Below, one piece after another: positions 40,751 through 54,348 of a DNA stretch of 64,000 nt. The position numbers and the translations under genes were made by a program. Each line of letters starts with the position of its first letter. Position 1 is the stretch's first letter. The notes beneath the pieces were generated by a model. That model was not told where the DNA came from. It saw only the letters and a program-made list of their open reading frames with translations, and did not search any database. Source of the DNA: Harriotta raleighana (lineage: Eukaryota); contig JBNZDD010013596.1 in assembly GCA_050575255.1 (NCBI GenBank), forward strand, positions 1,192,440 through 1,256,439, read 5' to 3'.

Positions 40751-41068
40751 TTAAACACTAGTACATTTTAAATTGTTAGATAGTAAAACTTTCCGTGAAG
40801 TGATACAAGATAAGGCCAAGTTCCCATCAAAGAAAATATGAGGGTGCATTGCTTCTAAAACTGGTTGTTTCGGTGAACCAGCCAAGAAGAGAGTTTGATT
40901 AATCTCCAGGCCACGATCGTGAATTTCCTTCAAAACTTTCTCTACTTTGCTTGCAGGACCTCTTTCTGTGATTAAGTATGTTCGGATGGGACATTCCAAA
41001 CGTTGATTTTTGTCAAAGAATTTTCTCTGGATCTTTCCCAGGATTTCTATAAATTCTTTGATATGGTT
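40751..41068 (-). CDS. NT5C1B: Cytosolic 5'-nucleotidase I (NT5C1B-like) last exon, divergent copy C (105 aa + stop)
   Basis: Acceptor cctgtttcacaaacag|AAC; LGKIQRKFFDKNQRLECPIRTYLITER...GLEINQTLFLAGSPK...PHIFFDG aligns with the NT5C1A/B final exon; adjacent to RDH14 as in other vertebrates. Confidence 0.78.
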   Translation of the reverse strand, partial: NHIKEFIEILGKIQRKFFDKNQRLECPIRTYLITERGPASKVEKVLKEIHDRGLEINQTLFLAGSPKQPVLEAMHPHIFFDGNLALSCITSRKVLLSNNLKCTSV

Positions 41069-43431
41069 CTGTTTGTGAAACAGGTAAATTACAACTTCAG
41101 AAATAGTTGCTGTTTGATATCTCACACATTTAATATGTTAATATTTTCATACTTTGTCATTTCAGACTATTAAGGCCTAGTGGCTAGTTCAAAGAAATAC
41201 TGTAGTGAGCTCTCTTCATCTTTCAGTTGTGCTTAAACCAATGTCTGGTATATTATCAGCAGTTCCTGGCTCAGGAACTGGAGTATTGAGACCACCACAG
41301 AGGATTGCCTCCATGCTGATATTACGTTGTCAAACAAGTCACCTTGGCATCAGTTCAGTTCCAATGAGATCCAGATTACCTTCCCTTTCCCTCCAGATGT
41401 TAGTCACTTATAGGTCATTTGCTATCTGATACCTGCTATTTGATCCTTGCAAACGTCTTCATAAAATATTACTGAGAGATGTAGTATAAAAACACATCTG
41501 AGAGGGAATGAACTATCATGAATATAACGTTTAGAGTCACTATTATTTTGCTGGAAGAGCTTATTGTAACACCGTCTGATCATTAAGCATTTAGTGAAAT
41601 GATAGACTGAAAATTGTGCAGTTCATGTGAAAATTACCACCTGTACTTATTCTCACATTGTTGAAAACTATAGCTGTGGCCAGTCGATATTTACCCACTT
41701 ATTGGGTCATAGGCAAGATAGTGAACTCCTGATTGACATTGTTACCATCCTTCTGTAAACCTAAAAAGGCTCATTTTACGGTGTGTAACCAGTTGAAGTG
41801 CTTTGAGACATCCCTCTGACATGAAAGGCATTACAGAAAGGGTGTTAATAAGATTATAGCGGAACTACATTTTATTTGTTAAAATTCAGCACATAATAAT
41901 TTCTTATACTGATGTTGCTCCTTATCGGATAGTTGTAATGTCTTAAAGCACCTCGCCAGAATTATTGTAAAATGTAGTGACTGTGTATTAGCAGGCAGAT
42001 TTGTACAGAGCAATATCTCACAAACAGACATGAGCAATCTTATCTGAGGATTTTTTGACCAAGCCAGGAAATCAGGAAATCTATCTGTTGCACATGATTT
42101 GGGATATTTTCTTCATGTTTGATCTTTAGCAATGAAGATATTGGAAAGTAGGAAGCTGAACTGACCTAAAGATGTAGCATTGTGAATTTACTCAAATTCA
42201 TACAGTATGTCTCTCGCTGCAGTTGAACATCATAATACAGGTAAGGGAGTTCCTGTTTTTTTATCTTTCAAATTCATGCACTGGATCGGTTATAAATATT
42301 AGTCAATTTACAGAAGTTTTTCAATTTTGTCCATTAGATGGAAATGCCTTCCCTGGTTTTGCACCAGAACAAAAACCTTTTAAAGCAAAATGATCCAGAA
42401 ATGTAGCATTGATGGAAAACAAAACATTTATTTTGTGCTGTTGACCTTCTAACATACTCACTAATATTCAGAGCCTAACCTCTTAATATAATTAATATCA
42501 TATTTGACAAGGATACAAAACTCTGAGCTTGGGATAACAAAATATTGTTACTAAATACATAATATATTCAAATCTACATTTACTTATAAAATATAGCAGA
42601 GTCTATGATTCTCTGTCTGCTAATAGGTACAAACTAAAATATACAAAGTTTAACCTTAAAAGTAACTATTGGTTAGACAATAAATCAGATGTTTGGCTAA
42701 ATACACCAGTATATTGTTCCGAGCACGACAACATTGAAGATGAAAAGACAGACATTTTGTTGCAAAACTATTAGCTAAAACAAATTAGACATTTGACCAG
42801 TTGAAAAAATAAGATTTTATTTTTTATTGGAAAACCTTTGAAGAACATAAATAGATACAGAGTAATATGATACATTTCTCTGCACTCAGTGACAGCTCAT
42901 CATTCTTGCTTTGGATAAAACAGTATTTGCAAAAATTGAGATGTGTAAACAGGACAGAATGCCAGGAGATTGTTTTTAATATCATGTCAAAACATCGCTG
43001 TGTTTCACAGTTTTGCTGCAAAGTACAGTAACTGTATATTTGGAGGCTAATGTGACAGCCAAGTTGTACACAAAATGTTACACAAATAACAACAACTTGC
43101 ACAAACAGATATTAAGTGAATGCGTAATGTTACTGGCAACAATGGACAAATTGTTCATGTTACAGCTATGTTTAAGAGTTTCTCCTTCTCAGAGCCTGGA
43201 GATAAAATGTTCATGCAAACCCATATAAAATAGCCATTTGAAGACTTTGTTAAAATTAATGAAGATCAACTTTTATCACTTTTTGCAACACTGAAACATG
43301 AGTATTTGAATCCCCCGGGGCAGCCAAGCAGTTGGTAATAAAGAGGACCATTCAGAATATCACAAGAGTGAGTGATTTTAGAAAGACATTTTCTACCTGA
43401 ATGCATAGATATATAGGCCATTAGTGGGCAT

Positions 43432-43610
43432 AATAATAATCCTTGCATTTTAATATAGAGCTTTTCACATCTTATCGACATCTCAATATACTGAAAAGTG
43501 AATTGACTGTATATTTGTGGGCGAAACACAGCAGTCAATTGCACACAAACAGTCATGGATTGAAATGAGCAATTTTATTATTGTGGGTTTTTTGGAGGGA
43601 TTATTAATAC
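43432..43610 (-). mobile_element. tRNA-derived SINE 3' half
   Basis: Family tail and core in reverse complement. Confidence 0.8.
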
Positions 43611-43732
43611 AATCTTACAAGAGAGGGTAAGCATACCAAAAGACATCTCAAAGTGCTTCACATCAAAGGCATTTGCCTATGTATTTTTAGGCACACATTT
43701 TGAACAGCAGTGTCCCACAAACAGCCATGGTT

Positions 43733-44410
43733 TCATAGATTATACAGCTCAGAAATGGGTTATTTGACCCATCCAGAGGGCTGATATTTATACTCCACAT
43801 GGAGTATCTATTCAAGACACCCTCTCCCTGGTCCAATATCCCAGCTTTTCTTCACATCCCTCAAAATTGTTCTCCCTTAACTGTGTCCAGGATTTTCTTG
43901 AATGGCTACCAATGTATGCTTGAAAACATTTTTGCTCGTCTTTGTTCTGGATCTCCTTGTTCTGATTCTAAAACTATACCCTCTGGTTCTAGATCCCAAA
44001 GTTATCAGAAATTATCTTTCCCATCATTTTATATATTGTAGCTCTAAAATACCCCTCACACCCTTCTCAGCGCCAAAGAAAAAAAGTTTTCCCAATTTAT
44101 AAGCCTTTTCTAATAGCTGTCTTTCCTCATTCCAGGCAACATCCTAGTGAACCTTCACTGTACTGCCTCCATTACCTTAACATCCTTCTTATAATGAAGA
44201 GCTGAAAATTACAGACACAATGAATTGCCTATGACTAAGTGTGGCAGTATGACCTCCTTATTCTTACACTGTATTATCTTAGCCATATACATTATCAATT
44301 GTGTTTTTTAATGACCTTATGCACCTGGTTTTCTGCCTTCAGTGACCAATGATTCTGCACTTCTAGATCTCCCTGTTCTTCTACCCTTTTAAGATTTGCC
44401 CCTTTAAGTT
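43733..44410 (-). mobile_element. CR1 LINE 3' fragment
   Basis: CATAGATTATACAGCTCAGAAATGGG terminus; ATTCCAGGCAACATCCTAGTGAACCTTCACTG internal CR1-type sequence. Confidence 0.7.
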
Positions 44411-44420
44411 ATAAGGTATG

Positions 44421-52885: not shown

Positions 52886-52904
52886 TATTTAAAAACTTGT
52901 GTAT

Positions 52905-53295
52905 CGGTTGATTCAGTGGAAGTACTGTCATCTCTGGGTCAGAAGTTTTTTGGGTTGAAGCCCCAAATTGGAACTTGGAATCGCATAATTTAAGGCTGAC
53001 ACTCAAAGCAGTTTGGGAACTTCAGATAAGAGGTCAGACTGTCTGTTCAAGTGTATATTAAATATACCTTGGCACTATTTGAAAATATAAGTGTGTTTCT
53101 CCCAGTATTCTGGCCAACAATCACCTAAATAAAACTGTCCACTCACTCCATGGCTGTTTATGGGTCATTGCTGTGTACAACTGGTTGCCGCACTTTGCTC
53201 ACAAAGTACACAGTCAATCCACAATCAATTACAGTAAACCCTGTGAAGTACTTTGAGATGTCTTGAGGTGTACCAAAATGCAAGGATTATTGTTA
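52905..53295 (+). mobile_element. Old Deu-domain SINE
   Basis: GTCAGAAGTT...GGGTTGAAGCCCC head; GGCACTATTTGAA; CCCAGTATTCTGGCCAACA; tail ATGCAAGGATTATT. Confidence 0.7.
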
Positions 53296-53991
53296 TTATT
53301 TGTGATTAAATGAGCTATTGCTGATTCTTGAAAGGAACTCAGAATCTGAAGAGAAAGCAATGCATCATCTGTTGGAAAATGTAACATTATCAGTTGGTTG
53401 AAAATCTGATCTTATTTCAGAGACATATAATGGATCCAAAAATATGAAATTCATTGGAGATGGAAATAATTCATGGAATAATTGATTGGAGTCCAATCCT
53501 GTCACAGTATATTTTATTCTTAATATGTATGAAGGGCATTGTATAAACACAAGTTGTTGTTGAGAATAAAATACTAGCAAAATCAATATTTTTAAAAATG
53601 TTATTGTTGTAACATTGGGCAAAAGAAAATGTTTTTGAATGAAAAATTTCCATTGATTTAATGTTTTATCTACAGATTATAAATATATGTAATATTCAAT
53701 ACTTCAGAATTATCAGATGTACAAAAATCAAACCATCATAAAAACAAGGCGCTACACAAAATGCAAGGATTATTATTACCAATGGTGAAAATAAAATTAA
53801 TTTTACATTTTGGATCAATTTTAGACTTGAAGCACATATTTAATGCAAAAACAATGATGTGAAATCTAATGCCAATCAGACATTCATTAACAGATAATTC
53901 TTGCTTGTTTGCTTTTTCCATTAAAGGTTATAGGCAAACAAAAATGGTTCATAATAAAACACCACGCTATGAAGTTGTCTAGTTAAATCCC

Positions 53992-53997
53992 TTTAAT
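53992..53997 (-). terminator. ATTAAA poly(A) signal of NT5C1 last-exon copy A
   Basis: TTTAAT in context CTTTAATTCTCCTTGA; about 50 nt past the stop. Confidence 0.6.
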
Positions 53998-54045
53998 TCT
54001 CCTTGATGTATACAACAAGCATCCTTAACCACTTTCAAAAGAAAT

Positions 54046-54348
54046 TTAATGCTTCTTGTATGTGGTAATGGATCCCGACTGAACTGTTGAATGAAGTGAT
54101 TGGTCATCAAAGAAAATATGAGGGCGAATTTTATCTATGATCAGTAGTTTTGGTGTACCGTAAAGAACAAAGGCTTCATCCACCTCAAGGCCCCAGCCGC
54201 GAATTATCTTCAAAGCTTTTGCTCCATTAGTTCCACCGTATTTTGCCATGATCAAGTATATTCGGATTGGGCAATCCATACGTTCATTTTTGGCAAAGAA
54301 CTTTTTCTGGAGTTTGCCGAGAGCCTCCAAAAATCCTACGAGGGGGGC
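54046..54348 (-). CDS. NT5C1B: Cytosolic 5'-nucleotidase I (NT5C1B-like) last exon, copy A (100 aa + stop)
   Basis: Acceptor cctgtttcacaaacag|[32 protein letters not shown]...WGLEVDEA...[11 protein letters not shown] matches the canonical GPLKGFLExLGRLQKKFY...[10 protein letters not shown] final exon. Confidence 0.85.

Follow-up and report, generated by a model that had tools for sequence, protein, structure and literature searches.

A stretch of 64,000 nucleotides from the chimaera Harriotta raleighana (contig JBNZDD010013596.1, positions 1,192,440 to 1,256,439; hereafter the window) carries three versions, here called cassettes A, B and C, of the last coding exon of a cytosolic 5'-nucleotidase I (cN-I) gene. 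We are confident of the structure of this gene, a tandem duplicate of NT5C1B with alternative last exons. On balance, we also favour the wider reading that these last exons are ancient, that most of their products are no longer nucleotidases, and that the products are probable partners of an intact enzyme encoded nearby. The cassettes and their splice acceptor regions lie in the window as follows.

54046..54348, minus strand: cassette A, last coding exon with the C-terminal HAD core, 100 amino acids plus stop; motif II Thr lost, Lys and the DD pair kept.
45382..45720, minus strand: cassette B, alternative last exon, 112 amino acids plus stop; Thr and both Asp lost, Lys kept.
40751..41068, minus strand: cassette C, alternative last exon, 105 amino acids plus stop; Thr, Lys and the first Asp kept, second Asp lost.
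54349..54384, minus strand: splice acceptor region of A, ending in cacaaacAG, phase 0.
45721..45756, minus strand: splice acceptor region of B, phase 0, with the same cacaaacAG end.
41069..41104, minus strand: splice acceptor region of C, phase 0, with the same cacaaacAG end.

In six-frame translation all three cassettes are open, lie in the same phase and end at a stop codon, and each scores above the curated cut-off (28.2 bits) of the Pfam profile PF06189 (A 76.2, B 52.7 and C 68.4 bits). Motifs II, III and IV read YLIMAKY/GTPK/HIFFDD in A, YLIMVDG/GSMK/HILLNR in B and YLITERG/GSPK/HIFFDG in C, and CP.R, YL, GLE and PHI are kept throughout, exactly as the original prediction had described them. 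Its view of the cassettes as parts of one cN-I-type gene, differing in catalytic residues and resembling pseudo-enzymes or altered isoforms, also gains support, with A/C exchange annotated in three elasmobranchs. Missing from every cassette is the conserved region downstream of motif IV, which forms the last helix and strand and ends in AHVP, and the tail of B beyond motif IV is not conserved. At the DNA level the copies are 68-70% identical, and their homology is limited to the exon and ~60 intron bases. Separate tandem genes were rejected because upstream exons are absent between the copies and the likeness ends ~60 intron bases out. No fourth copy or further NT5C1 exon was found in the whole window with protein and DNA hidden Markov models or tblastn.

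The host gene is a chondrichthyan tandem duplicate of NT5C1B. In a tree of orthologs for the N-terminal part that the proteins have in common (41 rows, with 2 skipped), it forms a single clade (100/100) within chondrichthyan NT5C1B (100/98), with the 1B clade supported at 97/97. Intact NT5C1B is a separate full gene in sharks and rays; it lies on a contig as long as that of the degenerate gene and encodes an undamaged motif I and cap. Canonical last exons occur in gene models apart from those of the degenerate gene, together with the upstream exons that belong to them (intact DGDAVLFSDESE). The RefSeq numbers of the intact and degenerate genes are adjacent in three species (Leucoraja, S. canicula, Amblyraja), and those in Narcine are two apart. 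In the remaining species checked the numbers are far from each other, and numbering there says nothing about gene order. These relations bear on the original prediction that a fourth, canonical exon of the same gene lies past position 64000, which would make the cassettes part of a working NT5C1B itself. The window holds no canonical exon and the intact gene is adjacent in four species, so one probably does lie past the window end. Because the intact gene is separate and adjacent in those species, such a TARS/FFDD exon most likely belongs to another gene; canonical ends come with upstream exons of their own, none of the 36 proteins with a degenerate motif I ends canonically, and we regard membership of the cassettes in the working gene as very improbable.

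The nucleotidase architecture was lost across the whole host gene, before the cassettes came to differ: the cap and tail have decayed and are modelled with low confidence in the A isoform, while the N-terminal domain has been kept. Between catshark and skate, 137/154 residues of the N-terminal domain are identical in the degenerate gene, as against 134/154 in the intact gene, and the residues around motif I of the degenerate gene are identical at 9/9. The cap, by comparison, is identical at 11/40 positions (intact gene 27/34) and the tail at 5/17 (intact gene 20/21). Against the intact paralog, the degenerate gene retains 6/34 identical residues in the cap and 2-3/21 in the tail. In the A-isoform model the predicted local distance difference test score (pLDDT) falls below 50 at residues 209-220, 222-225, 314-320 and 322-329, whereas in the intact control model the helices of the cap and the final helix and strand all exceed 90. 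Sequences and models together point to the loss of the cap after motif I, and of the last helix and strand, in all isoforms of the host gene. The fold was originally thought to be retained; this holds for the N-terminal domain, which is conserved as in the intact enzyme, and fails for the cap, last helix and strand, which are missing in the A-isoform model.

Structural comparison of the models gave matches through different domains. The intact catshark model finds its best HAD phosphatase match, the T4 Pnkp phosphatase, through its C-terminal domain (Z 12.2, rmsd (root mean square deviation) 2.6, 122 aligned, residues 208-358), and the best match of the chimaera A-isoform model is through the N-terminal domain (Z 12.1, rmsd 2.3, 119 aligned, residues 28-173). 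No relative in the PDB was found by sequence, and a structural search with Foldseek turned up nothing at E 0.001 or better. The family itself carries an internal repeat, its N- and C-terminal halves aligning with a probability of 99.4-99.6, and the N-terminal half has VSS at the place of the catalytic DGD of the C-terminal half. As a separate observation, cN-I can be described as two HAD-like domains in tandem, the first without the catalytic Asp (P0015); we met no mention of this in the portions of the cited literature that were accessible.

The non-degenerate homologs among P0001-P0204 keep [LV][VI]TARS, G[AG]PK and [FY]FDDQ in 184 of 184 cases, and the motif changes of the cassettes lie far outside normal variation in the family. 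Motif II Thr is absent from all 23 A-type and both B-type sequences and present in all five of C type. The motif III Lys is found in all three window copies and in every C-type sequence, and is lost in 20 of the 23 A-type sequences. At motif IV, the A-type sequences have an acidic pair (DD in 7/23, DE in 16/23). Both Asp of the Mg site are found in A alone among the window copies and neither is found in B (2/2); C keeps the first in 4/5 and has lost the second in 5/5, the C of Leucoraja being without both. The fifth residue of motif I, whose exon lies outside the window, is F or L in orthologs where the consensus is T/V. By the roles assigned to these motifs in PMC3946280, the residues lost are those which bind phosphate and Mg. 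A and B are predicted pseudo-enzymes, quite probably without activity on adenosine monophosphate (AMP), and the prediction for C is a weak or redirected phosphatase at most.

Since cN-I is oligomeric, B had first been proposed as a possible inactive or regulatory subunit. A special place for B as the dead subunit among working ones is not supported, because the loss of the cap, encoded by shared exons, is common to all isoforms, and because A too has lost residues, its Thr in 23/23 and its Lys in 20/23. Covariation among the A-type sequences (P0002-P0219) is perfect: the residue after the motif II position is Ala in the 3 sequences with the motif III Lys and Lys in the 20 without it, which may mean that the catalytic lysine has moved, through one event or two. 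Milder drift of the active site occurs in other lineages, because some unnamed and faster-diverging cN-I relatives (P0234, P0242, P0250, P0253) have TTRD, TSRG or TSRD instead of TARS.

The cassettes are ancient, and the last exon was probably triplicated before the chimaera/shark split, because each of them groups with shark or ray sequences and a triplication confined to chimaeras is rejected by the approximately unbiased (AU) test (p-AU 0.00016). The chimaera/elasmobranch split dates to ~400 million years ago. In a tree on 79 columns, clades A (98/97), B (99/97) and C (93/90) each join chimaera and elasmobranch rows, and clade C reaches 98/92 in another tree of the cassettes. Cassette A is identical at 96/100 amino acids to the end of RefSeq XP_007898661.1 from Callorhinchus milii, the species of the best hit, and B at 54/79 to a B-type module in Hemitrygon XP_072911468.1. 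Four elasmobranchs (S. canicula, S. torazame, Leucoraja, Narcine) have RefSeq isoforms of C type, to which C is identical at 49-55/79. The B of chimaera and Hemitrygon alike has YLIMV, GSMK and Asn at the first Asp position. A-type ends were found in 21 elasmobranch species of the sample; both A and C were seen in 3 species only, C in S. torazame, and a B-type module in 1 species. A search of 50% clusters with C found no close C-type representative (best E 1.8e-23). An assembly artefact or a recent duplication was ruled out by the identity of 68-70% between the copies and by the AU test.

Selection seems to have acted on the splice acceptors, because their identity between copies is far above that of fourfold-degenerate sites. 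The last 36 intron bases of A match those of B at 32/36 and those of C at 34/36, to be compared with 18/39 at fourfold-degenerate sites and 11-16/36 at 109-180 bases upstream. A switch of last exon on common upstream sequence can be read from RefSeq isoforms of S. canicula (X1 ends in C, X2 in A; XP_038656066/67), Narcine (X1/X3 in C, X2/X4 in A; XP_069742570-76) and Leucoraja (X1 in C, X2/X3 in A; XP_055491389-92). B has been absorbed into mixed models, namely the tail of UniRef A0A4W3HI29 and Hemitrygon XP_072911468.1. A, B and C are likely to be used as alternative last exons; for B, we infer its use. No read spliced at these exons was seen for the window species. Two Narcine models, X5 and X6 (P0207, P0205), have unrelated short tails and no cassette, and consist of the N-terminal domain and motif I only. 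Sequencing run X1 carries all three exons and served only as a second chimaera-like sequence; it is uninformative on expression because its contigs run unspliced through the acceptors. Poly(A) hexamers follow each of the three stops and are not counted, as the DNA is AT-rich and they come without a chance control. Within the B tail there is a donor-like site, AG/GTAAAT (45410-45425, minus strand), from which B could also splice onward, and a C. milii UniRef model runs on from the region of the B tail into sequence near 45039-45007.

The history that we favour would begin with a tandem NT5C1B duplicate that first lost its cap and tail. The last exon would then have triplicated before chimaeras and sharks parted, and alternative 3' splicing would join one constant N-terminal domain to three C-terminal cores. 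A and B would be non-catalytic, with C the only candidate for residual activity. The conserved N-terminal domain would be the part through which all isoforms act, probably by partnering the intact enzyme encoded next door, and the choice of exon would alter the surface or ligand pocket which each isoform presents as a partner. The related enzyme cN1A is described as a tetramer. It assembles into filaments in cells (PMC13538286), and recombinant preparations of it contain multimers, its native structure not being known according to PMC12195718; it is activated by adenosine diphosphate (PMC10383617). For the catshark pair of intact and A-type proteins, the predicted complex reached 0.57 where the best of 3 controls gave 0.00, a result graded weak: only 5 of 78 solved pairs scored 0.60 or below, all 4 of the mismatches to pass fall in this range, and closely related proteins pass easily. 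The runs agree in at least 97% of contacts, with a partner pLDDT of at least 77. Regulation of the intact enzyme by the host-gene proteins we put at somewhat short of even chances. Bolder still, and in our view unlikely, is a splice-switched pseudo-enzyme regulator of AMP breakdown some ~400 million years old, in which A would be a rewired phosphate sensor with a relocated lysine, B fully dead and C a capless redirected phosphatase, all assembling with the intact enzyme and setting AMP and adenosine by tissue.

Several observations weigh against the reading of these cassettes as mostly non-catalytic partners. The sequences used for the shared upstream exons and the intact gene, both of which fall outside the window, are those of C. 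milii and elasmobranchs, and the isoform evidence consists of automated gene models. A search through 83 candidates of at least 197 amino acids brought up no isoform ending in B, the 1 match being an A-type model with a B tail, and the only other B sits in the Hemitrygon model, where A and then B stand in series. Gene conversion could also have caused the likeness of the acceptors. The DxD of motif I is invariant in 36/36 proteins of the host gene, which a wholly dead enzyme need not keep, and C retains its Thr, its Lys and mostly its first Asp. The invariant DxD and the A-type lysine beside motif II favour the main rival, in which the protein, having lost its nucleotide-selecting cap, would be a HAD phosphatase with an open site and a different substrate, C being the active form and A a rewired Mg and phosphate binder. 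The residues kept by C, the acidic pair of A and the occurrence of that lysine in exactly the A-type sequences without the motif III Lys would all suit it. Its difficulties are that the last core helix and strand have gone from every cassette, that no C keeps the second Asp (and the C of Leucoraja neither), and that one or two evolutionary events would account for the lysine swap; we hold a redirected phosphatase to be fairly unlikely.

The remaining points against the favoured reading concern constraint. Among the 40 listed of 138 differences between the window and run X1, C has 11 non-synonymous and 4 synonymous changes, a ratio of ~0.8 per site, which suggests weak constraint on C in chimaeras; FFDG of C becomes FFDE, and the tail of B differs in length by 1 nt. 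It may be that the N-terminal domain alone matters, with A the working end, B and C minor or decaying (at least in chimaeras) and the losses mere drift in a dead site. These near-neutral changes, the Narcine X5/X6 models ending without a cassette, the finding of both A and C in just 3, and of a B-type module in 1, of the 21 A-type species and a paralog dN/dS of 0.43-0.52 would fit such decay. It fits less well with B and C still being 62-70% identical between chimaera and elasmobranchs, in open frames and behind near-identical acceptors, or with B having kept its YLIMV, GSMK and Asn in both lineages, and we judge it quite unlikely.

Downstream of the cassettes there is a neighbouring two-exon gene on the same strand, 7.6 kb from C (24747-33104).

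32751..33104, minus strand: first coding exon of a short-chain dehydrogenase gene (Pfam adh_short).
24747..25361, minus strand: second coding exon of the same gene, an open reading frame for which a protein atlas gave the family name alone, short chain dehydrogenase.

We take this gene to be RDH14, a synteny marker for NT5C1B. An NT5C1B-RDH14 readthrough is among those listed for humans in PMC9498395. Elsewhere in the window, dispersed repeat-like fragments occur at 15546-16820, 48066-49123 and 57663-58722, some with reverse-transcriptase-like frames, and a short dispersed repeat is present many times between the cassettes. The reverse-transcriptase-like fragments are presumably of LINE (long interspersed nuclear element) type.

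The host gene shares its family (PF06189, HAD superfamily) and two-domain fold with NT5C1B, nests inside the chondrichthyan 1B clade and lies beside an RDH14-like gene. It differs in having no cap and no last helix and strand, in its altered motifs II-IV, in its three last exons and in the intact paralog kept apart from it. The RefSeq sets named 'cytosolic 5'-nucleotidase 1A-like' in S. canicula, Narcine, Leucoraja and C. milii are its orthologs and contain the A/C switch; they are named as ordinary nucleotidases, their lost residues pass unremarked and no B isoform was found among them. Such shark 'NT5C1A-like' annotations are misleading, and exon B is without a proper model. No description of this gene was found in the literature covered, which comprised main texts with subscription journals largely outside it, and the accessible parts of PMC9857879 and PMC12749971 held nothing relevant. 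A and C isoforms were already known as automated models, as were duplicated alternative last exons (PMC9741552) and dead paralogs (PMC5201418) as kinds. What appears to be new is the combination: a degenerate duplicate of NT5C1B, found across the chondrichthyans, whose active-site exons are three in number, ancient and swappable, with B lacking a proper annotation. If binding to the intact enzyme is true, these would be, to our knowledge, the first pseudo-enzyme regulators of cN-I. They would also form a series of natural variants with which to study the N-terminal pseudo-HAD domain, in an enzyme to which no solved structure is related by sequence.

No swappable exons are known to us in the prozyme of trypanosome AdoMetDC, an unrelated family. 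The prozyme is likewise a dead duplicate beside an active enzyme (PMC5201418); its binding and regulation have been shown, whereas co-assembly of the host-gene proteins is proposed here from inferred binding. A nearer parallel for the exons themselves is found in the human catalogue of tandem duplicated exon substitutions (PMC9741552), where 77/236 events are C-terminal and the exons are likewise old, homologous and swappable; NT5C1 is not named in its main text as far as the accessible part goes. The events described there tend to avoid ligand-binding residues and are mostly conservative. Swappable duplicated exons usually spare active sites, whereas the exon swapped here makes up most of the active site, holding three of the four catalytic motifs and differing at precisely those.

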